In this document: piece after piece, positions 4,545 to 28,891 of the stretch
Layout of the letters: each line of letters opens with the position of its first letter
Numbering within the stretch: the first letter of the stretch is position 1
NCBI GenBank assembly: GCA_964503235.1
Contig: CAZCZJ010000013.1
Location: forward strand, 1 to 29,885
DNA from: an uncultured Dehalococcoidaceae bacterium
GTDB lineage: Bacteria; Chloroflexota; Dehalococcoidia; Dehalococcoidales; RBG-16-60-22
Direction: 5' to 3'
DNA length: 29,885 bases
Program-made: the position numbers and the translations under genes
Notes under the pieces: generated by a model
What the model was told of the DNA's origin: nothing
The model's input: only the letters and a program-made list of their open reading frames with translations
Databases searched by the model: none

Positions 4545-6794
4545 TCATCCATTGTTCTCTGCTTTTCGTACTTCGACAAGGGTCTGTTTCGGCATGGCTG
4601 TTACCACCGGGTCAAAGGCTTTATCGGGGTCAATACTGTACAGAACGTTTACGTTCGCGCCCCCATCCAGCAGGGGATAGCCCGGTAGTCCGAGCTCGCT
4701 GCAACCCTGCCACCACCCGTGGAGACTCATGATTGTGTCCGGGCGAATCCCCGGGAAATACAGGGCCTTTACCTTAATCCAGCCATGTGGTGACTCGACG
4801 ATTACCCAGTCGCCATCGTTTATCCCGCGCTGTCGGGCTGTATCCGGATGGATATGTATCCAGGGTTCAGGCTGAATCTCGCGCAGATAAGGAACGTTGC
4901 GCAACCACCCGTGATTATACGCTTCTGAGGTATGTGAATCAAAAAGGACCAGGGGATATTTTCCCAGGAGTTCGGGTGTGCCTGTCGGGCTCTCGGGAGG
5001 TTCTACCCATTCCGGCAGCGGGTTAAACCCGTTCTCTTCGAAACTGGTGTTATAAATTGCCACTTTGCCCTGGGGAAGATATGGTGCCCCGGAAAGCCGG
5101 GGGCTGGGAGCCGTAAGAAATTCATCGTATTTCTCGTAAACCATCGGCTTCGGCTCATAGATAATACCGGTAGGATATTTTCTGAGCTCATCCATTGTCA
5201 TGCCGAAGTTTTCCAACTGATAGTTCATGCACTCCTCGATGTTACCGTGCCAGAAGTCCTCTCCGTATCCCATCTTAACACCGAGGTCAAGCCAGAATTC
5301 ATAGTCCGATTTATAGTCTCCCAGCGGCTCGATTACCTTATTTCGCGCCATGATCCAGTTGCCCGTTCCCCCCATGGGTACTTCAAACGGGTGGTCGCAT
5401 TCGTACATGGTAGTTACAGGAATGACAACATCGGCCCAGGGCATCGACGAGGTCTGCATCACGTCGATAACCACGAAGAATTCCAGTTTTTTCAGGGCTT
5501 CTACTATCCTCCTGGAACCGCGGGTGATTACCGTGGGCTGGGTTCCGGGAGCGATTATCGTCTTGATGGGATATGGCTCTCCGGTAAGAACGCTATCGAG
5601 ACAGCGGTAGTATGCTGAAGATATGCCTTCGATGAAAGGCTGAAAGCAGCGGGGCATCTCCGGGCCTACCAGCTTGTCGATGAACTCCTGAGTATATCTC
5701 TTATGAAGAGTGACCGGTTTTGGCATCGGCATGCTGCTCTCCATCGGGACGATATTACCACCGGGCCGGTCGAGGTTACCGCTGATGGCTATTAATATGG
5801 CAACGGCACGGATAGCATTATTGGAATCCACAACCTGATCGAACGCGTTCCCGGCAAGAATACAGGCTGACCCGGCTGTCCCGTATAACCGGGCAACCTC
5901 CCTTATCTGTTCAGCTGGCAACCCCGTTATGGGCTCAGCCCACTCCGGGGTATATTTCTGTATGTGAGGTACAAGTTTATCGAAACCGTAACACCACCGG
6001 GAGACGAATTCCGCATCATACAGGTGCTCATTGATTATCACATTGAGCATGGCCAGCGCCAGAGCGCCATCGGTACCGGGCCTGATGGGGAGCCACATAT
6101 CAGCCTTAGCCGCATCCGGCTGCATCTCGGGTTTAATAACTACGAGCTTGGCTCCTCTTTCTTTAGCGTCTAAAATCTTTTTCAGATTGCCTGTCGGTGC
6201 ACCAGCGTAGACAGGATTTGCTCCCCATACCACGATAAGGTCAGCATGCTCATAATCGGCACCAGCCATACCGAGCATGGGGGCGGCTACGGTATAGGCA
6301 AAGCCGAAAGCTCGCTGTATGGCGCAAATACCGCTATGGCAATAGTTAGGACTGCCGTGTGCCGTCAGGAACCGAATGAAATAACTTTTATAGGTCCGGG
6401 CTTGCGGCGAGAGAATAGCCAGGGATTCCGGCCCATATTTCTCCTTTTGTTCCTTTAGCTTATCGGCGATTAAGTCAAGAGCTTCATCCCATGTCACCCT
6501 CTCGAATTTACCTTCACCCTTCTTCCCCACACGTTTTAAAGGGTACTTAAGACGTTGTGGTGAATAAAGCCACTGCATAGACGCAAAAGCCTTGAGGCAA
6601 AGTTTACCTTTGTTTATGGGAGATTCCTTCATGCCTTCAACTCTGACTAATCTACCGTCTTGCACATAACAGTTCAGCCCACACCCCATGCTCGGACCGC
6701 ACAAAGAACAGAAGGTAGGAATCATACGTTCTTCAGGCTTCATAGTCTGTTTGAAACTTATCTCTTCCTTAAAATCGTCATTCTTGGTACTCAT
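4545..6794 (-). CDS. Molybdopterin (bis-MGD) oxidoreductase catalytic subunit, DMSO-reductase superfamily, cytoplasmic
   Basis: 749 aa. N-terminal FeS motif CSLCGPSMGCGLNC...LCLKA and a typical C-terminal GDWV...barrel domain. No twin-arginine signal. GGAG lies 7 nt upstream of the ATG. Confidence 0.9.
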   Translation of the reverse strand: MSTKNDDFKEEISFKQTMKPEERMIPTFCSLCGPSMGCGLNCYVQDGRLVRVEGMKESPINKGKLCLKAFASMQWLYSPQRLKYPLKRVGKKGEGKFERVTWDEALDLIADKLKEQKEKYGPESLAILSPQARTYKSYFIRFLTAHGSPNYCHSGICAIQRAFGFAYTVAAPMLGMAGADYEHADLIVVWGANPVYAGAPTGNLKKILDAKERGAKLVVIKPEMQPDAAKADMWLPIRPGTDGALALAMLNVIINEHLYDAEFVSRWCYGFDKLVPHIQKYTPEWAEPITGLPAEQIREVARLYGTAGSACILAGNAFDQVVDSNNAIRAVAILIAISGNLDRPGGNIVPMESSMPMPKPVTLHKRYTQEFIDKLVGPEMPRCFQPFIEGISSAYYRCLDSVLTGEPYPIKTIIAPGTQPTVITRGSRRIVEALKKLEFFVVIDVMQTSSMPWADVVIPVTTMYECDHPFEVPMGGTGNWIMARNKVIEPLGDYKSDYEFWLDLGVKMGYGEDFWHGNIEECMNYQLENFGMTMDELRKYPTGIIYEPKPMVYEKYDEFLTAPSPRLSGAPYLPQGKVAIYNTSFEENGFNPLPEWVEPPESPTGTPELLGKYPLVLFDSHTSEAYNHGWLRNVPYLREIQPEPWIHIHPDTARQRGINDGDWVIVESPHGWIKVKALYFPGIRPDTIMSLHGWWQGCSELGLPGYPLLDGGANVNVLYSIDPDKAFDPVVTAMPKQTLVEVRKAENNG

Positions 6795-6844
6795 TCTTTG
6801 TCTCCCTATAATTTCAACATTTCAGATTAATAATTCTACAATTT

Positions 6845-6879
6845 AAAAAAGCTTGAAGTATTTCAGAGTAGTATACTTC
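6845..6879 (-). terminator. Weak candidate terminator separating the TIR/AAA+ module from the Mo-oxidoreductase operon
   Basis: Minus strand: GAAGTAT, 11 nt loop, ATACTTC, then aagcTTTTTT. The stem is short and AT-rich. Confidence 0.3.
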
Positions 6880-7192
6880 CACCGGGATGCAGCTAATTCA
6901 ATAATTGTTGGATGATAAACTCATGAATATATGGACGGTAGCTCATTAACAATATAAATTGTACCTTTTACATTGTCGATTAATCAATTGGGGAAATTTT
7001 CAGCAGCACTTTGAATCCTGCTACCCATCGTCCCATTTTACAATTGTCTCCTTTATATTTTAAGCGATGTAGTTCCACAGTACAATAAATCTAATTTGTT
7101 AATAGTGATAGAAAGGGACTCTTGATGAGGAAACGTTGCAACAAGTGGCATCTTCAGTCGTGACTAAGTAATCAAGGAGTTCTCTGTGTATA

Positions 7193-7266
7193 GTGGGAAC
7201 TAGCTGTTTCTACGGAACTAATCACCTTAATAAGTGCCAGGCAACAATCAACAATTAGTTCCCACC
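7193..7266. repeat. Three copies of a GGGAACTA-type 10-12 nt motif (two direct, one inverted)
   Basis: GTGGGAACTA (7193-7202) and TAGTTCCCAC (7257-7266) form perfect 10 bp inverted arms. An internal direct copy GGAACTAAT (7214-7222) is complementary to ATTAGTTCC (7255-7263), giving two mutually exclusive helices. Confidence 0.6.
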
Positions 7267-7314
7267 TTGCGGCAGCCGACAAGTCGAATACCGGTATTTC
7301 CGTGGCGGGAGTCG

Positions 7315-7464
7315 TTAGGAGCAACCTGTCCGGAGTAATGAGAACGGCCCCAAGGACATCGCCGGGAGGAAAACGAAACGGCTGATAGGAACAGCAGGTA
7401 AACAGCCATGCACCGGATTTAACAGCCTCGAGAAGATTTCAGCTATCTCGCCGACTCCACTCAT
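7315..7464 (-). CDS. Hypothetical 49 aa ORF directly downstream of the AAA+/RyR gene (speculative)
   Basis: ATG at 7464-7462 lies 12 nt after the upstream TAA. Translation: MSGVGEIAEIFSRLLNPVHGCLPAVPISRFVFLPAMSLGPFSLLRTGCS. This stretch is visibly more GC-rich than the surrounding AT-rich spacer. No recognisable motif and only a weak SD (GAGAG). Confidence 0.2.
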   Translation of the reverse strand: MSGVGEIAEIFSRLLNPVHGCLPAVPISRFVFLPAMSLGPFSLLRTGCS

Positions 7465-7476
7465 CTTTCTCTCGCC

Positions 7477-10134
7477 TTAGCTCAATTTAGCCATGGAGTA
7501 TCCGGCCTTGGCCAGAATTTTGGGAATACCTCTCACTAAGGTACGGTCTTTTTTCTTCTCTATTTCAGAAAGATGCTCCCAGGGGACCATGTCTTTATGC
7601 AGTCTTTTTTCTTTATCGGTTGTTTCCGCATGCTGCCAGCCATTCTCTAACTTCAGCTTAGTCCACCGTTCGTGCTCTATTTGGGCTAGTTTTTCAACTT
7701 CTGTATCCTTAAATTCACCGGAAGCTTTACCACCCCGGGCCGGGAGCATGGCATATCCGATACTCGCCAGTTTATTAGCAATGTCACGGACATTATCCCG
7801 ATTCTGCTCCTTTTCATCCTCAGGTAATTCCGCATAAGGCCTTAGCGAGCTATGTTCTTTTTTATCATTACGTGTTTTCGGTCCATATTTATAACCTTTA
7901 GCTTCCAAATCTTCGCAAAATACCTCGTGGGTCGCTTCGGCAAGCTTCTCAAGCAGGTCAGAGCTCATCGTCAGATGATGCACCAAAGTATAAAATTCAC
8001 TGCCGTCTACATGCAAATTCAACTGCGTCTCCGTGGGTAGGCTGGAACGCTCGAAGCTCGTTTTGCCAGACAACTGGCTCGTGGTGATTATGGTTTCCAT
8101 CGACCGGGCGCCGTGTTTGTATCCCTTGATTAATAAGAAGGCGCGCAGCAGACCTTCATCGATGTTTACAGTACCATCACTATTCAGGAGTTGGGGTGTG
8201 TTTCGTTCTAAGACCGAACGCAGGAGAATGGCGCGGCGGATGACATGATATGGGTCTCCACCTCGCCCGGACACGCCTTTATCTTCCTGCCTGTTCGGCC
8301 CGAGAATATTGAGGAATCCTCTGATTCGGCTGACAAAATCAGGCAGCTTCACTGCCCGGCGGTTTTCATCTTCGAGATTTGCCCCGAATGCCTCCAGACT
8401 ATGGCTGGAACCGCCAGCAAAGACGAAGATACTCCTGCCTATCGGGTGAATTATCTGACCATCCTGGAATTCGCCGTCCTGCATCGGCGCCAGGAAATAG
8501 CGTAGCCAGCCCAGCGGCTGACCCTGCAGAGCGGTATCGAATTCGTCCCAAAAGACGAGAGGAATCTTGCCGGATAACGCTTTATCACGTACCTGATTGA
8601 AGGCGTCAAGTAAATCATAAGGTTCGCCTAATTGTGAGAGGTTAAAACTCAATGCCTCGATTTCCCGCGGACGTATCGAATTGGCTACCTGACTTACCGC
8701 GAAAGATTTTCCGGCTCCAGGCGGACCGAAAACAGCGATGGAGAGAGGCTTCTTCTCGATTCGCTGGCAATATTCACTAATCAGACTGCTTATGCAGTTC
8801 AAGGCTTCGATTTCCCGGCGGTCTACCGTTACAAGTTTCCCGAATCTCCTTACCGGCACACCCGACAGTGCGTTATGCAAACCCTCACGCACAATCTTTT
8901 GGGCCACTTTTTCAAGGGATTCCGGGTTTTGGTCCTCAAGGATGGTCCAAAAAGATGGTGCTTCTGCATCAATAGTCGTGGTTGCCTTTGCAGAAAGTAC
9001 ATCCGCCGGGTTCCTGATTGGTGCGTTTGCCAGGCTATCAGTCTTATCTGCCAGTCTGGTCGCTATCTTTGAGATTGGAAAAGCAGCCGGGTTTTGCCTC
9101 AGGTCGCCAACGGCATCACCATATCCTTCAATGTGAAGAAATCGCGTGGCGCCAAGGCCGGACTGAATACCTCTATGCAGATTCGGGGTAGAAGTATTGA
9201 GCATTAACTCTCTGGCAATACCCGCAATAAGGCAAGTATTATAGCCAATCATGTACCCTCGATAGTTACGACCCCATTCACCTTCCATCACTTCTGGATC
9301 AAAGAACAGGGTAGCATCCAGGGTGCGGTCCGATTTCCGTGATAGCAGTATGGCACCAGCTGTATCAAAGGAGATAACAACATGTAAGCATCGTGTGATT
9401 GCGTTCACATGAGGATTATACAGGAGCTCCCAAACCAAATCCTGGGCTGTCCTCTCCCATGATATTTGGCGACTTATATGGACATCGGCATGGCAGCGAA
9501 GGTCGTTGGCGGTCATGACAGCTATAAGCTGGTCGGCATGATGTTCCTGCAAATGGTTCCAGAGCTTGCCCTCGGCGACGGGTCGCGCGATTTTAAGGAG
9601 GACCCAGGGACGGGAAGTGTCACTCGATAGAGCACGAGGCCAGTATTCCTGATGGTCGCGAAATCCAAGGTTGGCATCATCCAGGATAATAAGATCCGGG
9701 TTCGGAGGGTCATTAACGACTTTTTGCCAGTCATCTGATGAAGTTGTATCGGCACCTGCCCGGTCCAGCCCCAGGAATTCCTGCACACGCCAGACCTTTC
9801 TTTTCTGACTCGCGTTGCGTTCATCGAGCTCAAATGGTGCCCATGTAGCATAGGAATGGTGGAATCGATCGTCGCCGGGTCTTACTGGCTCCTGGGGCAT
9901 ATTAGTTTCTCGGACTTCAAATATGGTTCGCCTGGATTCACCTAAGTTCTTGGCAACCGCTTTGATTATGTCCGCCAACATCGCTGCGCCCCCTCGTTGG
10001 CAACAGGCTCGAGTTAGATCTTCAGCGTTCCAACCCTCCGTAAGGACATCTCTTCGTTGTATACGAACTATATTCCAGTCGATGGTGACATCCCCGGTCA
10101 CGACAACTAATTTCGCACTCTTTCCCTTGTTCAT
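7477..10134 (-). CDS. Multidomain protein: N-terminal ribokinase/pfkB-like domain (degenerate), AAA+ ATPase, and two C-terminal RyR (ryanodine-receptor repeat) domains
   Basis: Start moved to ATG 10134, which has AAAGGAGG 5 nt upstream. Walker A is GPPGAGKS (about 8705-8728). Walker B is LVFWDEFD (about 8536-8562). Sensor region is HGARSME. RyR repeats are EKLAEATHEVF...LRPYAELPEDEKEQNRD (about 7750-7953) and EKLAQIEHERW...MVPWEHLSEIEKKKDR (about 7492-7698). pfkB-like blocks are LVVVTGDVTIDWN, RGGAAMLA, LIILDDANLGF, IAVMTANDL and VVISFDTAGAILL (about 9120-10116). Confidence 0.8.
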   Translation of the reverse strand: MNKGKSAKLVVVTGDVTIDWNIVRIQRRDVLTEGWNAEDLTRACCQRGGAAMLADIIKAVAKNLGESRRTIFEVRETNMPQEPVRPGDDRFHHSYATWAPFELDERNASQKRKVWRVQEFLGLDRAGADTTSSDDWQKVVNDPPNPDLIILDDANLGFRDHQEYWPRALSSDTSRPWVLLKIARPVAEGKLWNHLQEHHADQLIAVMTANDLRCHADVHISRQISWERTAQDLVWELLYNPHVNAITRCLHVVISFDTAGAILLSRKSDRTLDATLFFDPEVMEGEWGRNYRGYMIGYNTCLIAGIARELMLNTSTPNLHRGIQSGLGATRFLHIEGYGDAVGDLRQNPAAFPISKIATRLADKTDSLANAPIRNPADVLSAKATTTIDAEAPSFWTILEDQNPESLEKVAQKIVREGLHNALSGVPVRRFGKLVTVDRREIEALNCISSLISEYCQRIEKKPLSIAVFGPPGAGKSFAVSQVANSIRPREIEALSFNLSQLGEPYDLLDAFNQVRDKALSGKIPLVFWDEFDTALQGQPLGWLRYFLAPMQDGEFQDGQIIHPIGRSIFVFAGGSSHSLEAFGANLEDENRRAVKLPDFVSRIRGFLNILGPNRQEDKGVSGRGGDPYHVIRRAILLRSVLERNTPQLLNSDGTVNIDEGLLRAFLLIKGYKHGARSMETIITTSQLSGKTSFERSSLPTETQLNLHVDGSEFYTLVHHLTMSSDLLEKLAEATHEVFCEDLEAKGYKYGPKTRNDKKEHSSLRPYAELPEDEKEQNRDNVRDIANKLASIGYAMLPARGGKASGEFKDTEVEKLAQIEHERWTKLKLENGWQHAETTDKEKRLHKDMVPWEHLSEIEKKKDRTLVRGIPKILAKAGYSMAKLS

Positions 10135-10316
10135 GTCCGCCTCCTTTGTTATGCTGTTAATCGGCCCTATCACCTAAGAACCGTCGGAAATCCTTATAGA
10201 GGTTCTCAAACCACATCGCTGTCTGAGTCAAGAGCCACAAGCTCTCCACCTTTTCAACCTAATTCCGATAATTCCTGTTGGGCGTTTTCCTGCACTTATC
10301 CTCCTGTATCGTACCG

Positions 10317-12029
10317 TCAGTGGTCTCCCTCAGGTTCAACGAGGCTGAAGATAAACACTCCACGGGTTGTGTCCGTGGAAAATGCCAGGTCGTCCACCGC
10401 AAACACACTGCTGACCTCTTCCATGGCTGAGTAGTCAGCTATCATAACCGGATTTTGTGGGTCGCTGATGTCGATAGCCATAATCCCGCTCTCAAGAATT
10501 TCCGTCCAGGTGCCGTGGTCTATACCGAAGGAATACGTCACATAGGCGATGTTACCGGTGATGGAAATCTGCATGGTGGTAAGCCGGCCGGTGGCCCCCG
10601 GCGGTATCAGCTCATGCGGTCCCACGGGTACGTATCGCCCTATTTTAATGGGTTGTGAGGGTACGCTCACATCAATTATCTCCAGTCCTGCGGACCATCC
10701 CACCACGTAGGCTGTTTTACCCACCACGGCGATTCCCGACCCCCAATCACTGGTATCGAACTGCCCTATTTGCACCGGCTCGGAGGGATTTCTGACATCA
10801 ACCAGGTGGAAATCATTTGCAAGTACGTAGGCGACATTATCCGCCACGACCAATCCGGGATAGGCAACATTGGAATTAAACTCAAATTCACCGAGCTTAA
10901 CCGGGCTCGAAGGCACGCTTGTATCAAGGAGGGTCAGGCTATCGGAGGTGGTTAAATAGACAATATTACCAACCACGGCAATCTTATTCAGGGAACGAAA
11001 GTCATCGTGCTCGTACTCTCCTACTTCTACCGGATTGGAGGGAATGCCCACATCTAACAACAGCAGCCTGTCGCGCAGGGCTTTATTCCCCTGTATTCCC
11101 CCTTGCTCGATTACGTAGGCGATGTTATCAACGACCACCACGTTCTCAACACTGTTCTCGACGATTTCAAGGGAGTACTGACCTATCTTCTTTGGCTCAG
11201 AGGGCAGGCTGATATCCAGCACCAGTAAACCGTCACCGCCGTTGGCTACATAGGCTATATTGTCAACGACAAAGACACTATTTGCCTCGCGGGAAGTGCT
11301 GTAGGTTCCTATATGATTAAGAGATAGCTCGGTCGCTGTCTCACTTCCTGCATCCTCCTCGCCGGATGTGTTGAAATATAGCCAACTGCCGATTACAGCT
11401 ACAATTATGATGAAAACCGACGCTATCCCCCAGGCCCATCGTCCTCTCAATTTGTTTAGCCACTTCCCGCCGGCCTTACCAGCAGCTTTGGGTATTGGCA
11501 AGTCGTAGGCCGGCAAGTCAGGCTTGGTGCCTCCCTTTATCACGCCGGGTGACGGAGTTTCGCGGAGCATCCTACGTATCCGTTCCAGTCGCGATACATC
11601 AGGTTTGGATGTCGGGTGAATGTCCAGGGCTTTGAGTCCATCGACGATGCGGTCCAAGATACCGGTGATTCCCTCCTGCGGAATGAGTATCGATGTGGCC
11701 GAGCCCAGGGCTTCCCGCCATTCCGGCTGGCGGTTTTGAAATTCTACATGGCTGATGTCCCGCAGCACCGGGATAAAGTATATGCCGGTTTCGTGCGCTC
11801 TAACGACTTCTCTGGTGACCTGCCGGGAACCGAGCGAATGCGGGGATATCACCAGGATAACGGCCTGGGATTGCTCAATCGCTGCTCCTGTTTGCAGGAG
11901 GTACGAAGGACCTGGTATGCTGTCCAGCTCGTAAGACCAGGTCGAATAACCTGCCTCCTCCAGCTTAAGAGCAATCTCTAAGGCAACATCAGCATCTTCT
12001 TCAACATGGCTGATGAATATATGGCTCAT
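10317..12029 (-). CDS. TIR-domain protein with a single transmembrane helix and an extracytoplasmic 7-repeat LVIVD beta-propeller
   Basis: The N-terminus IFISHVEEDADVALEIALKLEEAGYSTWSY...AVILVISPHSLGSRQVTREV fits the TIR_2 pattern. The TM helix WAWGIASVFIIIVAVIGSWLYF (about 11373-11438) is preceded by a K/R-rich segment. Seven NIAYV...L.V.D.S.PS.P..IG repeats follow. GGAGG lies 6 nt upstream of the ATG. Confidence 0.85.
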   Translation of the reverse strand: MSHIFISHVEEDADVALEIALKLEEAGYSTWSYELDSIPGPSYLLQTGAAIEQSQAVILVISPHSLGSRQVTREVVRAHETGIYFIPVLRDISHVEFQNRQPEWREALGSATSILIPQEGITGILDRIVDGLKALDIHPTSKPDVSRLERIRRMLRETPSPGVIKGGTKPDLPAYDLPIPKAAGKAGGKWLNKLRGRWAWGIASVFIIIVAVIGSWLYFNTSGEEDAGSETATELSLNHIGTYSTSREANSVFVVDNIAYVANGGDGLLVLDISLPSEPKKIGQYSLEIVENSVENVVVVDNIAYVIEQGGIQGNKALRDRLLLLDVGIPSNPVEVGEYEHDDFRSLNKIAVVGNIVYLTTSDSLTLLDTSVPSSPVKLGEFEFNSNVAYPGLVVADNVAYVLANDFHLVDVRNPSEPVQIGQFDTSDWGSGIAVVGKTAYVVGWSAGLEIIDVSVPSQPIKIGRYVPVGPHELIPPGATGRLTTMQISITGNIAYVTYSFGIDHGTWTEILESGIMAIDISDPQNPVMIADYSAMEEVSSVFAVDDLAFSTDTTRGVFIFSLVEPEGDH

Positions 12030-12148
12030 TTAAGTCCTCCGATACTCAAACCGTACCCATTACCTAAAACGGCTCCACTGTATAAAATCCTACGATAATA
12101 CATCATAAACATCACACCCTTTTTCTAAAAAGGATAATATCTTTAGGA

Positions 12149-12177
12149 TTATTATTAATTGAATTATGATATGTCAA
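12149..12177 (-). promoter_or_regulatory. Sigma-70-type promoter for the TIR gene
   Basis: Minus strand: TTGACA (12177-12172), 17 nt spacer, TAATAA (12154-12149). This would give a 5' UTR of about 110 nt. Confidence 0.45.
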
Positions 12178-12286
12178 GTACTGATAGTCAACTATAAAAT
12201 AGTTACAGTAGCCCACCGAAGAACAGGTAAATACGGTCTGGAGAAGTCTGCTTAATACCAATATGAAGTGGTCTTACTTATCTTTG

Positions 12287-12360
12287 CTCTTGATTGAATC
12301 TGTTGCAATGCCACTTTCGTTCTGAGAAAGAAATGGACTTAAGTGAGATTCAATCAGGGG
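12287..12360 (+). repeat. Long imperfect hairpin / inverted repeat in the spacer upstream of the AOR gene
   Basis: TGATTGAATCT (12291-12301) and AGATTCAATCA (12346-12356) are perfect 11 bp arms. On the plus-strand RNA only, G-U pairs extend them to 15 bp (CUCU/GGGG). An inner helix is CCA-CUUUC...GAAAG-aaa-UGG. Confidence 0.55.
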
Positions 12361-12416
12361 CTCGTTGATATTTATTAGTAGAATGTCTGGATAACGTCAC
12401 ATTTGCGCTTGCCTCG

Positions 12417-12446
12417 TTGACATTAAGTCGAAGTCGTTAGTAGAAT
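12417..12446 (+). promoter_or_regulatory. Sigma-70-type promoter for the AOR gene
   Basis: TTGACA (12417-12422), 18 nt spacer, TAGAAT (12441-12446), about 40 nt upstream of the ATG. RBS is AAAGGAG at 12474-12480. Confidence 0.5.
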
Positions 12447-12486
12447 TATATCGTATTCATATTGTTATTAATGAAAGGAGCTAATA

Positions 12487-14354: not shown

Positions 14355-14406
14355 CCGGGATACAGCTTGTGCTCTGTTAATCCGTCGCCGTTAAGCTGTG
14401 TCCCGG
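14355..14406 (+). terminator. Long hairpin between the convergent AOR and Mo-oxidoreductase genes (candidate terminator)
   Basis: CCGGGATACAGCTT (14355-14368) pairs with AAGCTGTGTCCCGG (14393-14406). This gives 14 bp with one G-U on the plus strand and a 24 nt loop, followed by TAAATTTTA. The 3' arm overlaps the last codons of the minus-strand gene. Confidence 0.4.
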
Positions 14407-16514
14407 TAAATTTTACACAGCGTTCCCCTGGTCCTTACCGAGCCGCAGATGGGCTCCCGGGGCGGGTCGCCGGATAAGACGACGTTGACATTCGAGTCAA
14501 AGCAGCCGTGTTCCGGAGCCGGTTTCTCCGGGAACCACCATCCGTGCGGCGCATGGACAACTCCGGGGTGCACGTCGGTGGTGAGCTTCGCTTTGAACCT
14601 GACTCTTTCTCCCTTTACCTGCGGCGTTTCCAGCCAGACCCAGTCGCCTTCGGCGATGCCGTTTTCAGCGGCTGTATCGGGATGTATATCAAGGAGAGGG
14701 TCCGGTCTTAGCTTTCGTAATCGTGGTATCTGGCGTCCCTCGGTGTTGAAATTTGATATGCTTCTGCCTCCGGTAATCAGAATCAGGGGATATTCAGGCA
14801 GTAGTTCCGGTGTACTGACCGGACTTTCCGGTGGCTCGTGATAAACGGGTAACGGGTCATATCCGTGTGACTCGAATGTGGTGGAATACAGTTCTACCTT
14901 GCCCGTCGGGGTATTAAATCCTTTCTCGATGTATTTCTGATACTTCATGGGCTCTACAATGTACCCCTTCTTTTGCAGGTCCTGGAATGTAATGCCCATA
15001 CTTTTGACCATATCATTATTGAGTTCATCGGTGTCTTGCCAGGGCATCGGTGTCCTATCCGGCCAGTTTATTCTCTTTCCCAGCTCGATAAGCATTTTTC
15101 TATCGTCCCAGCACTCGTAAAGCGGCTCTATAACCTTCTGCCCGGCAGCGATGTAATTGGTATACATTAGATTCGGGAAATCACCCATGTCGTCTTTCTC
15201 CAGCCAGGTCGATGCCGGGAGTACAAAATCGGCCAGTTCGGCGGTGGGCTGCATGAAGAAATCGGCAACTACCAGTAAATCGAGACTTTTCAATGCCCTC
15301 CACATTTTTTTACTGTTTTGCATATTAACCACGGGATTACCCGTCGTGCAATACATCGCTTTGATTGAATAAGGGCCTTCGCCAAGCATGGCTTCGGCCG
15401 CTAGGGCGCAGTGCACGAATCCCTGCGCAAGCGGGAATTCCTTATTGCCGATACGCTTCTCCCTGATTTCTGGTTTGAGACTCAACTTGTGGGTGGGATT
15501 AGAAAATCCTTCGGGCAGCGACTGAAATAGATTGCCGCCTTTTACATCCAGGTTTCCGGTGAGGGCTATTAAAATGGCGAAGGCGCGGCTGGATTGAGTT
15601 GAATTGATGTTGTGTTCCACGCCGATGCGATGGTGCAGGACGGCCGGTCTGGTGGTAGCGTAAAGTCTGGCCGCTTCTTTGATACTGTCAACCGACAGCC
15701 AGGCTATTTCAGATACTTTTTCTGGGGTAAATGCCTGTACGTGGTCGTGTAACTGTTCGAAGCCGTGGCACCACTTGTTGACGAATTCTTTATCGTAGAG
15801 CCCTTCATTGATAATAATATTAATCATACCGAGAGCCAGAGCTAAATCAGTGCCGGGTCGTATCTGTAACCACAGGTCAGCCATCGCCGCCAGGGTCGTG
15901 CGGCGCGGGTCAATGACAATCAGTCTGGCGTCCCTTTTTCGTTTGGCCTGCACAATTTCCTCACCACGCGGCGGATGAGAGACAGTAGGATTGGCACCCC
16001 AGGCCATTATGCAATTGGCATGCTGATAGTCCGGCCCGATTTCCATCATGGTTGTCATTACTCCATACGTGCTCCTTTCGGCTACGGTCGAGGGAGCGAA
16101 ACAGATGTGATTATCAACACTTATTCTATTGGGTGTACCCAGCATCAAACAAAACAGGTGGGCGGTATTATTTCCCGTTCTGGGACCGGTGCCGGTCATA
16201 ACGGCAATCGACTCCGCGCCATATTTTTCCTGGACTTCAGTTAGCCTGGCGCCGATTTCATTTAAAGCTTCATCCCAGGAAATTCTCTGCCATTCTCCTC
16301 TTCCCCTCTCCCCGGTACGCTTCATGGGGTATTTCAAACGGTCGGGATGGTAGAGAAGCTCGGGCTGAGCCTGTCCCTTGACACAAACGAAACCCCGGTT
16401 CATGGGGTGCCTGGGGTCTCCCGTTACCCTGGTTACTTTTCCATCCTCTACGTGAACCAGTACGCCGCAATTACAATGGCAAGCCTGGCAAATACTCCGT
16501 ACTATTTTCTCCAT
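14391..16514 (-). CDS. Molybdopterin (bis-MGD) oxidoreductase catalytic subunit, DMSO-reductase superfamily, cytoplasmic, no adjacent FeS subunit
   Basis: Start moved to ATG 16514 (MEKIVRSICQACHCNCG...), which has GAGAGGTG 3 nt upstream. The ORF-track start at 16562 lies inside the predicted -35. FeS motif CQACHCNCG...VCVKG. C-terminal GDWVWLETP barrel. No Tat signal. Confidence 0.9.
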   Translation of the reverse strand: MEKIVRSICQACHCNCGVLVHVEDGKVTRVTGDPRHPMNRGFVCVKGQAQPELLYHPDRLKYPMKRTGERGRGEWQRISWDEALNEIGARLTEVQEKYGAESIAVMTGTGPRTGNNTAHLFCLMLGTPNRISVDNHICFAPSTVAERSTYGVMTTMMEIGPDYQHANCIMAWGANPTVSHPPRGEEIVQAKRKRDARLIVIDPRRTTLAAMADLWLQIRPGTDLALALGMINIIINEGLYDKEFVNKWCHGFEQLHDHVQAFTPEKVSEIAWLSVDSIKEAARLYATTRPAVLHHRIGVEHNINSTQSSRAFAILIALTGNLDVKGGNLFQSLPEGFSNPTHKLSLKPEIREKRIGNKEFPLAQGFVHCALAAEAMLGEGPYSIKAMYCTTGNPVVNMQNSKKMWRALKSLDLLVVADFFMQPTAELADFVLPASTWLEKDDMGDFPNLMYTNYIAAGQKVIEPLYECWDDRKMLIELGKRINWPDRTPMPWQDTDELNNDMVKSMGITFQDLQKKGYIVEPMKYQKYIEKGFNTPTGKVELYSTTFESHGYDPLPVYHEPPESPVSTPELLPEYPLILITGGRSISNFNTEGRQIPRLRKLRPDPLLDIHPDTAAENGIAEGDWVWLETPQVKGERVRFKAKLTTDVHPGVVHAPHGWWFPEKPAPEHGCFDSNVNVVLSGDPPREPICGSVRTRGTLCKIYRDTA

Positions 16515-26801: not shown

Positions 26802-26843
26802 TTCCTGCATAGGGAATCACCCTCGATAATAAGTAAACAACAG

Positions 26844-26880
26844 CACCTCCAGGTTATACGACCCGGGGGTGTTGTTTTTT
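26844..26880 (+). terminator. Rho-independent terminator of the FAD/FeS/FAD operon
   Basis: CACCTCC (26844-26850), 14 nt loop, GGGGGTG (26865-26871). This gives 7 bp including one G-U, followed by TTGTTTTTT. Confidence 0.6.
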
Positions 26881-26999
26881 ATCTTGTATTGCCTGATAAA
26901 ACTCCAGATAAAACCAAAATCCACTTTCATGCCATACCCCGATGAGATATTTGTCATATACATAATTAAATATTTCCATTATTCTCTATAGTGAAAATA

Positions 27000-27008
27000 T
27001 GTTATGCT
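27000..27008 (+). promoter_or_regulatory. Extended -10 element candidate for the tusA operon
   Basis: TGtTATGCT lies 27 nt upstream of ATG 27035. No convincing -35. Confidence 0.3.
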
Positions 27009-27034
27009 AAATCCACTTTTTGGAGGCATCAGTT

Positions 27035-27259
27035 ATGGCTGAGATAAAAGTTGAGTGCATCGGGGAAACCTGCCCGGTTCCGCTGGTAGAGACCCGTAAA
27101 GCTCTCCGGAAGGCTCAGGAAGGTGACATAGTTGAAGTTATCGGTACGCATCCTTCCTCCAAGAAAGAAATACCGATGGCGGTAAAAGCCATGGGACTGG
27201 AATTACTGGATGTAAAAGAGGAAAAGGACGGGACTTGGAAAATCAGGATACGCCGGTAA
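27035..27259 (+). CDS. tusA: TusA/SirA-family sulfur carrier protein
   Basis: CIGETCPVPLVETRKAL matches the CxxxxCPxP TusA motif. Start moved to ATG 27035, which has GGAGG 8 nt upstream. The ORF track begins at TTG 27020. Confidence 0.85.
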   Translation: MAEIKVECIGETCPVPLVETRKALRKAQEGDIVEVIGTHPSSKKEIPMAVKAMGLELLDVKEEKDGTWKIRIRR

Positions 27260-27274
27260 ACGGAGGTAACAGCC

Positions 27275-27694
27275 ATGGGAAATAAAGCGGCAATTATAGT
27301 TCACAGCGGTGATATGGATAAACTTTACAGTGCCCTTATCCTGGGCAACGGCGCCCTGGCAATGGGTATGGACGTCTACCTTTTCTTTACCTTCTGGGGG
27401 CTGCAACGTCTCAAGAAGGGCGGACTGGAAAAGGGACCGCTTTCCAAGATGAACATGTTCGGTCTGGGGAAGTGGATGATAAAGCGAAAAATGAAACAGG
27501 CAAAAGTAGCCTCGCTGGAAAGGATGTTTCAGGATTTCAAGGAACTCGGCGGGAACGTTCTTGCCTGTGACATGACGATGGATATCATGGGTGTCAAGAA
27601 GGAAGACCTGCGTGACGACTTGATATCGGATTATTGTGGAGTGGGCACTTACATGGATGTGGCTAAGGACGCATCGGTAACCCTGTTTATATAG
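27275..27694 (+). CDS. DsrE/DsrF-like sulfur-relay family protein (DsrE2/COG2210-type)
   Basis: 139 aa. AAIIVHSGDMDKLYSALILGNGALAMG...YLFFTFWGL...LACDMTMD is typical of the DsrE_2 family. Lies immediately downstream of tusA. Confidence 0.75.
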   Translation: MGNKAAIIVHSGDMDKLYSALILGNGALAMGMDVYLFFTFWGLQRLKKGGLEKGPLSKMNMFGLGKWMIKRKMKQAKVASLERMFQDFKELGGNVLACDMTMDIMGVKKEDLRDDLISDYCGVGTYMDVAKDASVTLFI

Positions 27695-27706
27695 CGGGAG
27701 GAAACA

Positions 27707-28891
27707 ATGCAGGAAAAACGTGTATACCTGGATAATGCTGCGTCTACCCGACTTGATGAGCGGGTGCTGGAAGCGATGACACCGTATTTCTTCGATACCT
27801 ACGCGGTGGCTACTTCCGAGTTCGCCTATACACAGGGTATAGAAGCCCGCGAAACCCTGGACGAAACCCGGGGAAAGCTGGCTAAAGCGCTGGGCGCCGA
27901 GCCGGAGGAGTTCGTTTTCACCTCGGGCAGCACCGAATCGTCGAATATGGCTCTCAAAGGCGTTGCCCTTGCCCTGGGCAAGAAGAAAGGAAAACATATC
28001 ATTGTATCCAAGATAGAAGATTTTCCCGTTCTCCAGAGCGCCGAAGCCCTGGAAAGAGAGGGGTTCCAGGTTACCTATCTCGATGTTGACGGTGACGGAC
28101 TGGTTAATCTTGACCAGCTTAAAGAGTCCATTACCGATGAGACAATCCTGGTTTCCATCCAGCATGCCAACCAGGAAATCGGCACCATCCAGGATATTGC
28201 CGGCATCGGCGCTGTCTGCCGGGAGAAGGGTGTTCTGTTCCATACCGATGCCACGCATACCTTCGGTCGTGTTCCACTGAATATGAAGAAGATACCGGTG
28301 GACTTGGTCACCGTGTCAGCCCATACTATCCACGGACCCAAGGGCATCGGCGGGCTTTACGTACGCAAGGGGACACCGTTAACCAAGTGGATGGATGGCG
28401 GTTTCCAGGAGTTTGACCTCCGTGCTGGACTGGAAAATATTCCGGGGGCGGTCGGATTCGCTAAAGCAGTAGAACTCATCACGCCAGAAGAAAACAAGCT
28501 CTTGCGGGCGATGCGTAACCACGCCATCAGCCGCATATTAAAAGAAATCCCGGACACAACGCTTAACGGCCACCGCCGCAAAAGGTTGCCGCATAACGTA
28601 AACATTTCCTTCCACTTCGTCGAAGGTGAATCGATAACGCTGCACCTGGATATACATGGCTTTGCCGTCAGCACCGGCTCCGCCTGTTTCAGTCGTTCTC
28701 TCCAGGGCAGCCACGTTATCTACGGTATCGGCGGCGACCACGAAAGAGCCCACGGCTCGATACGTATTACCCTGGGACGCTACAATACCATGGAAGAGGT
28801 GGATGCCGTGGTGGATACATTGGCTGAGGTTATCAGCGAGTTGAGGAAAATCAGCCCGCTGGGTAAAGAAAAATATGGTGAGGAGGTTTGA
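27707..28891 (+). CDS. Class V aminotransferase-fold cysteine desulfurase homologue (IscS/NifS-like) lacking the PLP-binding lysine
   Basis: VYLDNAAST, HANQEIGTIQDI and HTDATHTFG are present, and the active-site loop STGSACFS has Cys327 (28685-28687). The canonical S-x-H-K motif reads SAHT here, with ACT (Thr207) at 28325-28327. Confidence 0.85.
   Translation: MQEKRVYLDNAASTRLDERVLEAMTPYFFDTYAVATSEFAYTQGIEARETLDETRGKLAKALGAEPEEFVFTSGSTESSNMALKGVALALGKKKGKHIIVSKIEDFPVLQSAEALEREGFQVTYLDVDGDGLVNLDQLKESITDETILVSIQHANQEIGTIQDIAGIGAVCREKGVLFHTDATHTFGRVPLNMKKIPVDLVTVSAHTIHGPKGIGGLYVRKGTPLTKWMDGGFQEFDLRAGLENIPGAVGFAKAVELITPEENKLLRAMRNHAISRILKEIPDTTLNGHRRKRLPHNVNISFHFVEGESITLHLDIHGFAVSTGSACFSRSLQGSHVIYGIGGDHERAHGSIRITLGRYNTMEEVDAVVDTLAEVISELRKISPLGKEKYGEEV

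Follow-up and report, generated by a model that had tools for sequence, protein, structure and literature searches.

A candidate NAD-signalling module of a membrane-anchored TIR protein and an AAA+/RyR protein in an uncultured Dehalococcoidaceae bacterium

The stretch of DNA analyzed here (the window) covers 29,885 nucleotides (nt), positions 1 to 29,885 of contig CAZCZJ010000013.1 from the genome assembly GCA_964503235.1 of an uncultured Dehalococcoidaceae bacterium (Chloroflexota; Dehalococcoidia). Its open reading frames (ORFs) include two co-oriented minus-strand genes 182 nt apart that had been singled out from the sequence alone (hereafter, the original prediction) as a candidate undescribed defence or signalling system, and both ORFs are borne out (Table 1). 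The first gene encodes a TIR domain followed by a membrane helix and an LVIVD-repeat propeller (protein 1), and the second one encodes a fusion of a PfkB (ribokinase)-like domain, an AAA+ ATPase and tandem ryanodine receptor (RyR) repeats (protein 2). Domain architecture, topology, folds, conservation of catalytic and ligand residues, and genomic linkage were all examined computationally. Our favoured reading, held with evenly balanced confidence, is a two-gene, Thoeris-like NAD-signalling module in which a membrane TIR protein generates a signal and an RyR-domain protein is the receiver/effector.

The gene pair and its products

The domains assigned to the two proteins in the original prediction (TIR, membrane helix and LVIVD repeats; AAA+ and RyR) agree with the Pfam matches and hydropathy analysis, and the E74 residue it pointed to is the catalytic glutamate of the TIR domain. 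E74 is retained in 99% of the 108 members of the family and in all 64 TIR domains encoded next to the AAA/RyR cores described below. The net charge of protein 1 is +5 on the N-terminal side of the transmembrane helix and -5 on the C-terminal side; because of this asymmetry (the positive-inside rule), the TIR head is predicted to be cytoplasmic and the propeller of about 350 amino acids extracytoplasmic. Full-length relatives of protein 1 are scarce, and the TIR head with the transmembrane helix, about 190 amino acids, recurs in over 100 proteins at 55–76% identity. The C-terminal parts attached to this recurring head include LRR, CARDB, DUF1080/lectin-like, fn3, TPR, WD40, PQQ or SGL propellers, cohesin and others, and the head itself is very highly conserved across the proteins that carry these differing ectodomains.

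The ectodomain of protein 1 also occurs with other enzymes. In P0127, a metagenome protein of 602 amino acids that has the same topology as protein 1, a class III adenylate/guanylate cyclase is followed by a transmembrane helix and an LVIVD ectodomain that is 66% identical to that of protein 1. Because the same ectodomain is fused to a cyclase, the TIR domain appears to occupy the slot of a signal-generating enzyme. A group of TIR-LVIVD proteins of 549 amino acids from Anaerolineales (P0129–P0139) was considered as a source of orthologues of protein 1 and rejected: the ectodomain is common to both (about 50% identity) and the TIR head differs (about 30%), a pattern that indicates probable shuffling of domains between TIR lineages. 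The one locus of this group that was examined (L110:8001-9650; L numbers denote loci and P numbers proteins of this analysis) contains the 549-amino-acid type gene next to a gene for a DZR-cyclase-AAA_16 protein, and no RyR gene.

In the case of protein 2, the description of the N-terminal domain as ribokinase-like is right at the level of the fold because the AlphaFold2 model of residues 1–430 (predicted local distance difference test score (pLDDT) 86, predicted TM-score (pTM) 0.89) is matched by Foldseek, in a search against the PDB, to PfkB-family kinases: HldA, PFK-2, ribokinase, ketohexokinase and pseudouridine kinase (E ~1e-9, the best 8e-10; probability 1.0, identity 8–16%, TM-score about 0.5–0.57 normalized to the target). 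At the sequence level, these residues match neither PfkB (PF00294) nor any other family in Pfam or NCBIfam, and NCBIfam gave nothing above the cut-off for either protein as a whole. The HHalign comparison of the family profile of this domain with Escherichia coli RbsK and PfkB yielded a probability of <1% and no meaningful alignment, so that we label the domain neither an active kinase nor a pseudokinase. Eight residues, G14, D15, D19, W20, G48, G49, D153 and R159, are invariant or nearly so among the 190 sequences compared. The kinase motifs GAGD and NXXE, placed by eye and not by a reliable alignment, fall on G297-Y298 and N210..R213, respectively, and lack Asp/Glu.

The AAA+ module is detected by the Pfam AAA model at residues 468–537 (25 bits; cut-off 21.2), and its K476, D530 and E531 are found in every one of the 190 homologues. 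Foldseek relates this module to Vps4, ClpC1, FtsH and Cdc6; the Pfam models bpMoxR and nSTAND5 score 14 bits on protein 2, far under their cut-offs of 27 and 34.

Table 1. Features of the gene pair (window coordinates).
Feature	Position	Strand	Description
Gene 1	10317..12029	-	570 amino acids; TIR – transmembrane helix – LVIVD beta-propeller; predicted membrane receptor and generator of a NAD-derived signal
TIR head, residues 1–140	11610..12029	-	Cytoplasmic; Pfam TIR_2 at residues 4–93, 61 bits; codon of catalytic Glu E74 at 11808..11810
Transmembrane helix, residues 198–220	11370..11438	-	Single; hydropathy analysis
LVIVD-repeat propeller, residues 223–570	10320..11363	-	Pfam LVIVD, 90 bits; predicted extracytoplasmic sensor
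Gene 2	7477..10134	-	885 amino acids; PfkB-like – AAA+ – tandem RyR; predicted signal receiver/effector
PfkB/ribokinase-fold domain, residues 1–430	8845..10134	-	AlphaFold2 and Foldseek; no Pfam family
AAA+ module, residues 431–720	7975..8844	-	Walker A GPPGAGKS 8704..8727; Walker B VFWDEFD 8536..8556
RyR repeat 1, residues 722–805	7720..7971	-	H736, F739, H761, N778
RyR repeat 2, residues 806–885	7480..7719	-	H821, W824, H846, D863; all four signature residues for ligand binding and catalysis in RyDEP/RyR Tad
Spacer between genes 1 and 2	10135..10316		182 nt
Sigma-70-like promoter pattern, 5' of gene 1	12148..12177	-	TTGACA-N18-AATAAT or, equivalently, N17-TAATAA; 11/12 matches, consensus only

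Ribosome-binding sites of the AGGAGG type precede both genes, GGAGG in front of the ATG of gene 1 and AAAGGAGG in front of the ATG of gene 2 at 10134, where an in-frame GTG at 10173 is a possible alternative start. A pattern search found no convincing terminator or promoter in the spacer between the genes, and co-transcription of the two is plausible. The promoter that the original prediction assigned to the pair is present as a pattern upstream of gene 1, and a second promoter-like match lies at 12191..12163; because patterns of this kind abound in the AT-rich region (18 found, compared with 8.7 +/- 3.2 expected), this one provides no evidence of function. The spacers that flank the pair, 682 bp and 457 bp, are AT-rich as claimed (41% and 35% GC) but not the longest or the most AT-rich ones of the window: they rank second and third in length, behind the 905-bp gap at 26802..27706, and other spacers are more AT-rich. 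The two genes themselves have 50% and 53% GC, with a window average of 51%. Searching the entire window for Rfam families and tRNAs gave no match, so that, at gathering thresholds, the long spacers contain no RNA element. The 905-bp gap (46% GC) contains no convincing gene, and a minus-strand ORF at 27203..28258 (351 amino acids) overlaps a NifS-like gene and is probably spurious.

The surroundings of the pair were correctly recognized as a metabolic Mo/W-enzyme neighbourhood. They include three molybdopterin oxidoreductases (4545-6794, 14391-16514 and 16713-19352), aldehyde:ferredoxin oxidoreductase (AOR), Fe-S proteins, an ABC transporter, FAD/CCG oxidoreductases and NifS/NifU. In two related loci of the Dehalococcoidia type, where the components of the module are 61–69% identical, the flanks likewise contain molybdopterin oxidoreductase genes (L025:3371-5869 and L111:11379-13442). 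A mobile island was rejected on the basis of the window-like GC content of the genes, the lack of integrase and transposase genes in the window flanks, and the molybdopterin oxidoreductases flanking the related modules. An exact copy of gene 1 (P0121) is present on four other, independent metagenome contigs, and the gene for 885 amino acids adjoins it on the three that are long enough; the nearest named relatives come from metagenome-assembled genomes (MAGs) of Dehalococcoidia/Chloroflexota.

The RyR tandem as a predicted nucleotide pocket

The C-terminal part of protein 2 matches the Pfam RyR family (PF02026) in two stretches (94.5 bits against a gathering cut-off of 27.4) and, by sequence, RyR repeats in the PDB (E 2e-17). 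The best Foldseek matches of the tandem are to Repeat12 of human RyR3 with ATP, ADP or AMP-PCP (TM-score about 0.6, target-normalized). Phage proteins of the PF02026 family bind the cyclic ADP-ribose (cADPR) isomers 2'cADPR and 3'cADPR as well as cADPR itself at nanomolar affinity, as reported in two preprints of 2026 (PMC13232231; 10.64898/2026.06.04.730250). One of these proteins, RyDEP, in addition cleaves these nucleotides via an H75/D117 dyad, with W78 stacking on the adenine and H100 contacting the phosphates, and its activity feeds the restoration of NAD+ (PMC13232231). The ligand residues of RyR Tad are H129/W132, H154 and K170/D171, and sponge-type as well as hydrolase-type phage proteins keep the His and the Asp (10.64898/2026.06.04.730250).

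When protein 2 is aligned to the RyDEP of Mycobacterium phage DyoEdafos (gp78), H75/W78/H100/D117 correspond to the four signature residues of repeat 2 with identical spacing, and to H736/F739/H761/N778 of repeat 1, i.e. with Asn at the position of the catalytic Asp. These positions are highly conserved among the 190 homologues: His, Trp, His and Asp of repeat 2 in 187, 173, 156 and 183 sequences, respectively, and His, Phe/Tyr, His and Asn of repeat 1 in 190, 188, 161 and 187. Pectobacterium phage CB1, which encodes RyR Tad (gp68), is a direct tblastn match to the RyR segment of the window, with 37% identity. In the DyoEdafos genome (L109), the RyDEP gene (gp78, 49663-50079) is located between genes for a ribose-phosphate pyrophosphokinase (gp77) and a nicotinamide phosphoribosyltransferase (gp79), a pairing of RyR with ribose enzymes that resembles the fusion of RyR to a ribokinase-fold domain in protein 2.

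According to the working hypothesis of the original prediction, the ribokinase-like and/or RyR domains of protein 2 sense a signal that the TIR protein derives from NAD. This hypothesis is strengthened by the binding or cleavage of 2'/3'cADPR by phage PF02026 domains and by the retention of the ligand residues in protein 2, and the signal would run from the TIR domain to the RyR repeats.

Genomic neighbourhoods of the core family

Homologues of protein 2 number over 1,800 in a collection of 5.8 billion proteins, and, of the clusters at 50% identity in a set of 1.84 billion representatives, 1,592 belong to the family of its N-terminal domain. Although rare, the family is spread widely and patchily over about 10 phyla; members of this core family were found in Dehalococcoidia, Acidobacteriota, Syntrophomonadaceae, Cloacimonadota, Armatimonadota, Gemmatimonadota, Actinomycetes, Deltaproteobacteria and Verrucomicrobiota. 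A scan of 2.9 million viral contigs with the family alignment detected no relative of the core, and a prophage or phage origin was rejected on this ground. Three distant relatives of the core reside on plasmids. One of these, on plasmid pA of Methylobacterium sp. FF17 (L122, 1567-11944), lies about 0.7 kb from an insertion sequence (IS) element, followed by a gene for a SIR2-family protein of about 2,080 amino acids, SIR2 being another NAD-consuming domain; another one, on pCF009-b of Clostridium estertheticum (L121, 23700-26264), has no NADase neighbour and is found among chemotaxis and two-component genes.

Gene neighbourhoods were compared in 108 loci around protein 2 homologues, mostly short metagenome contigs, the main sample coming from an alignment-based metagenome scan and 15 loci from a single-sequence scan of genome contigs; genes were called as greedy longest ORFs. 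These loci contain 83 non-redundant cores, 76 loci have at least three genes, and 28 are well-flanked, i.e. have at least three genes on each side. The three-domain architecture is present in all 72 full-length cores of the sample. TIR genes were identified with hidden Markov models (HMMs) that were built in this analysis, the TIR model being iterated to reach divergent TIRs, and DUF4062, a TIR-like NADase (10.64898/2026.05.01.722283), was added after the Pfam annotation.

A TIR gene lies within four genes of the core on either side in 29 of the 76 loci and in 17 of the 28 well-flanked ones (61%); with DUF4062 included, the latter count rises to 21 (75%). At the positions +1/+2, 22 of the 123 genes encode TIR domains, compared with 7 of the 205 genes at least six genes away (Fisher p = 1.3e-5, with a small far control and kinship uncorrected). 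Among the directly adjacent TIR genes, 18 of 19 are co-oriented with the core, with gaps from -1 to 223 nt; the most common arrangement is TIR downstream of the core, and the upstream position seen in the window is a minority one. About half of the TIR partners carry transmembrane helices and variable extracytoplasmic domains, and in several loci (L005, L118 and L111), arrays of two to four TIR paralogues with different C-terminal domains surround a single core. When the search starts from the TIR side, three of the five sampled window-type TIR genes adjoin a gene for an RyR protein (two cores and one overlapping HD-RyR gene), and the remaining two are orphans. Thus, the synteny across genomes that the original prediction proposed to test is far above the within-locus background, and the link between the TIR gene and the core is real but facultative. 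The idea of an obligate two-gene system was rejected because of this facultative link: protein 2 is the constant element of a larger modular system, and the pair in the window is one configuration of it.

The RyR domain occurs in several other proteins of these loci. Channel-like proteins of about 600–630 amino acids that combine TrkA_N and RyR with two transmembrane helices (L005:17805-19649, L118:13098-14942 and L059:17603-19492) are encoded in TIR arrays or beside AAA/RyR cores in 8 of the 28 well-flanked loci; such proteins could be RyR-gated ion channels downstream of TIR, in parallel to cADPR and the animal RyR channels. In a Chloroflexota MAG, a gene for an HD_5/HD phosphohydrolase-RyR protein (L119:6893-8008, 371 amino acids) overlaps the start of a window-type gene for a TIR domain and a transmembrane helix (P0186, L119:8001-9251), to judge from the domain content a second kind of two-gene operon of TIR and an RyR effector. 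RyR-only proteins are also found in TIR arrays. The RyR domains of the HD-linked, TrkA-linked and stand-alone partners retain the His, Trp/Phe and Asp residues, with Ser in place of the phosphate-contacting His. Because RyR is joined to a variety of unrelated outputs, all of them encoded next to TIR genes, it bears the signature of a second-messenger receiver, and it is probably a portable receiver, given the fusions to HD, TrkA_N and AAA+ outputs. CARF, SAVED, SLOG and Macro are nucleotide receivers that are fused to varied outputs in known systems.

Another recurrent neighbour is a domain of about 200 amino acids without a Pfam family, recognizable by the motifs 'GVTGHR...LAEGADR' (L046:3500-4081, L064:3199-5082, L035:352-1953 and L009:670-3963). 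The free-standing form is always encoded at +1 of the core (13 loci); elsewhere, the domain forms part of SLATT/DUF4231 membrane proteins or, in L009, extends the core at its C terminus. Profile searches against Pfam and PDB with this domain gave only sub-threshold matches to SLOG (YAcAr), DprA and nucleoside deoxyribosyltransferase (NDT). Giant proteins in which DUF4062 is followed by NACHT/STAND and WD40 or TPR repeats account for 13 of the 341 neighbours (for example, L009:4134-7319, L037:5484-9149 and L059:13227-17624) and have a weak Avs1b match only in PADLOC; caspase-like Peptidase_C14 and HEPN proteins recur as well. One upstream block (L022:2977-6938) encodes an RyR-only protein of 176 amino acids, a TIR-DZR zinc ribbon protein of 241, a Peptidase_C14 protein with a zinc ribbon of 489 and a protein of 348 amino acids with three transmembrane helices, and sigma-54 and two-component genes lie downstream of the core in the same locus. 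PADLOC, run on nine partner proteins, returned generic TIR, caspase or STAND matches and no named system. Gene content varies between the loci of close relatives.

Known systems and competing readings

Among the known systems, the closest parallel is Thoeris (ThsB and ThsA-type proteins, types I–XI), where, as here, a TIR protein with a catalytic Glu adjoins a protein with a predicted nucleotide-binding receiver, and where one receiver/effector is combined with several TIR paralogues that differ in their sensor parts, as in L005, L111 and L118. Thoeris reportedly consists of a TIR protein and a receiver/effector, often with several TIR paralogues. Its effector modules are diverse and include SLATT and caspase-type proteins, according to a recent systematic survey (10.64898/2025.12.03.692087). 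In contrast to Thoeris, with its SLOG, Macro, DUF2270 or DUF6650 receivers, the module has RyR/Repeat12 as the predicted receiver and combines PfkB-like and AAA+ domains in its effector body, and about half of the TIR proteins are membrane-anchored and have ectodomains. The searched text and supplements of the survey, which covers types V–XI, contain no mention of RyR, PF02026 or TrkA (10.64898/2025.12.03.692087).

The phage proteins RyDEP (DyoEdafos gp78) and RyR Tad (CB1 gp68) share with protein 2 the PF02026 domain and the same H/W/H/D residues and spacing, and the tandem repeat of protein 2 mimics the phage homodimer. Unlike these proteins, protein 2 is host-encoded, chromosomal, fused to AAA+ and PfkB-fold domains and linked to TIR genes, and because of these features, it is predicted to receive the signal rather than to counteract it. 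An anti-defence phage role of protein 2 is not supported, with no relative on the viral contigs scanned and a metabolic chromosomal context; both preprints on the RyR proteins deal with phage anti-defence proteins only (PMC13232231; 10.64898/2026.06.04.730250). The animal axis of RyR Repeat12 and cADPR resembles the module in that Repeat12 of RyR3 provides the best structural matches and the nucleotide-contacting residues are the same (PMC13232231), but protein 2 has no channel body, and it is in related loci that TrkA_N-RyR proteins with two transmembrane helices occur. An evolutionary link to the cADPR regulation of animal RyR channels is speculative.

Protein 1 is comparable with Toll-like receptors and receptor-type class III cyclases in being a single-pass protein with a variable extracellular ligand domain and a cytoplasmic TIR or enzyme domain. 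In contrast to Toll-like receptors, the order is inverted here, with the TIR domain at the N terminus and the ectodomain at the C terminus, and the TIR domain is predicted to be an enzyme and not a scaffold; the comparison implies no homology of the LVIVD ectodomain to the LRRs of these receptors. The NTP-dependent conflict systems described by Kaur, Burroughs, Iyer and Aravind in 2020 (PMC7159879) also combine an NTPase core with swappable effector and sensor genes, including TIR, caspase, SLATT, HEPN and STAND-WD40/TPR genes, and show a similar lineage enrichment that includes Chloroflexota. The core differs, being an AAA+ protein with RyR and PfkB-like domains rather than the described STAND or MoxR(-vWA) ternary type, and that publication names neither RyR, ribokinase/PfkB nor LVIVD (PMC7159879). 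As the original prediction anticipated, no named system matches the pair: PADLOC gives nothing for protein 2 and a generic TIR for protein 1. The literature searched holds no description of a pair of TIR and RyR-ATPase genes, and PADLOC holds no model of one; judging by its domains, the module looks like an undescribed relative of Thoeris-like TIR nucleotide signalling.

In the mechanism that we favour, the LVIVD propeller of protein 1, a membrane receptor of type II orientation, would sense a cue at the envelope level, and this cue would cluster the cytoplasmic TIR heads, which, via Glu74, would turn NAD+ into a nucleotide that derives from ADP-ribose and belongs to the cADPR-isomer type. In protein 2, the RyR tandem would bind this TIR product, and binding would switch on the AAA+ ATPase, presumably by oligomerization; repeat 2 may hydrolyse the nucleotide and so act as a timer, and the PfkB-fold domain may be a second ribose- or nucleotide-binding site or the output module. 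The direction, identity and output of the signal, as well as a role in defence or abortive infection, are what we infer. The neighbours that are typical signal receivers or effectors, i.e. the SLOG-like GVTGHR-SLATT proteins, caspases and HEPN, count in favour of this mechanism.

Several observations weigh against it. About 25% of the well-flanked cores have no NADase gene nearby, and the pair is not obligate because of these cores and of the orphan genes for TIR-transmembrane proteins. The RyR pocket of RyR3 binds ATP, ADP and adenine (PMC13232231), so that the RyR repeats of protein 2 could sense ordinary adenine nucleotides, and because His and Asp occur in hydrolase-type as well as sponge-type proteins, hydrolysis by repeat 2 is not predictable. 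The PADLOC profiles of ThsA and ThsB produced no meaningful match (best ThsB E 0.035, none for protein 2). By eye, the catalytic Asp/Glu of the kinases appear to be replaced in the PfkB-like domain (Y298 and R213), and because the domain seems to be devoid of kinase catalytic residues, the output of the module is undefined. The known TIR proteins of Thoeris are cytoplasmic, and an extracytoplasmic sensor would be unprecedented for phage sensing. With regard to defence in particular, the flanks of the window contain neither mobile-element genes (integrase, transposase) nor other defence genes, and the locus sits outside any defence island. Given that molybdopterin oxidoreductase genes flank the related modules too, the module seems to have been inherited stably at a chromosomal position in this lineage, which suggests that it is not a mobile island. 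Of the twofold label in the original prediction, signalling of the NAD type is supported and defence is unproven.

The observation that the core is constant and its neighbours vary among effector domains (TIR, DUF4062, SLATT, caspase and HEPN) would also fit a reversed flow as in an NTPase-core conflict system, with protein 2 sensing cytoplasmic nucleotides such as ATP/ADP, or a phage-made molecule, in its RyR or PfkB-like pockets and then switching on exchangeable effectors encoded next to it, and with the TIR protein of the window acting as the membrane executioner that depletes NAD+. The binding of ATP and ADP by Repeat12 of RyR3, the hydrolysis of NAD+ by DUF4062 and many TIRs (10.64898/2026.05.01.722283) and the cores that stand alone point the same way. 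We nevertheless consider a reversed flow unlikely: it leaves unexplained the receptor-like helices and variable ectodomains on half of the TIR partners, the same ectodomain on a cyclase, and the fusions of RyR to HD and TrkA_N beside TIR genes, and the DUF4062-STAND-WD40/TPR neighbours possess sensors and an NTPase switch of their own. A different use of the RyR pocket would make protein 2 a signal terminator or NAD-salvage enzyme, in which repeat 2 hydrolyses cADPR isomers to ADP-ribose and the PfkB-like domain handles ribose, limiting autoimmunity or resetting TIR receptors whose effectors (SLATT, TrkA-RyR) lie elsewhere. The conserved RyDEP dyad in repeat 2 (H821/D863), the ribose and NAD genes around the DyoEdafos RyDEP along with the restoration of NAD+ that it feeds (PMC13232231), and the fusion of a ribokinase-fold domain to RyR, echoing that context of ribose handling, are all compatible with such an enzyme. 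This role is quite improbable, however: in the window and other minimal loci, protein 2 is the sole partner of TIR, which would leave no effector, the same His and Asp in sponge-type homologues deprive the dyad of the value of a proof (10.64898/2026.06.04.730250), the putative kinase residues appear, by eye, to be lost, and a large, strictly conserved AAA+ ATPase would be superfluous in a simple glycosidase.

A further alternative concerns the role only: the same chemistry could serve ordinary transmembrane signalling, in response to polymers, surfaces or neighbouring cells, rather than anti-phage defence. The ectodomains (LVIVD, LRR, CARDB, fn3, DUF1080/lectin-like, and PQQ/SGL propellers) are typical of extracellular ligand binding, one of them is shared with a receptor cyclase, two-component and sigma-54 genes flank some loci, the module is stably embedded among metabolic genes, and the family is absent from viral contigs. 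We rate this alternative as rather unlikely, though to be taken seriously, because its partners are hallmark domains of conflict and cell death (DUF4062-STAND, SLATT, caspase and HEPN), the spread over about 10 phyla is patchy, with distant relatives on plasmids, near an IS element and a gene for a giant SIR2 protein, and gene content differs between close relatives. The adjacency of two same-strand genes without any functional link is very improbable and already disfavoured. The 182-nt gap would allow independent transcription, the upstream position of the TIR gene differs from the commonest order and orphans of both families exist, but the positional enrichment, the recurrence of the association across phyla with different TIR architectures, its reciprocity from the TIR side and the fusion of the GVTGHR partner domain to the core in some genomes all contradict chance.

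If the favoured Thoeris-like signalling is correct, RyR/Repeat12 would be a new receiver domain in bacterial TIR signalling and PfkB-like/AAA+ a new class of effector; membrane TIR enzymes would sense cues at the envelope, ahead of infection of the cytoplasm or in its absence, and it would be explained on which template the phage RyR sponges and glycosidases were modelled, or what they are competing with. The physiological binding of cADPR by RyR Repeat12, long debated, becomes testable with small soluble bacterial domains, and the plasmid-borne relatives of the core in cultured bacteria (C. estertheticum pCF009-b and Methylobacterium sp. FF17 pA) are possible entry points for experiment. A broader proposal, which is tentative and somewhat on the unlikely side, is that host RyR/Repeat12 domains are an unrecognized class of receivers for TIR-made ADP-ribose signals that gate several outputs (the AAA+ ATPase, the HD hydrolase and the channel-like TrkA_N membrane proteins) and are fed by membrane TIR enzymes, the 'bacterial Toll-like receptors', with exchangeable extracytoplasmic domains for cues from outside the cell. 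If this were true, the module would represent the first outside-in TIR signalling in bacteria and the prokaryotic equivalent, perhaps even the forerunner, of the animal axis from cADPR to the ryanodine receptor.

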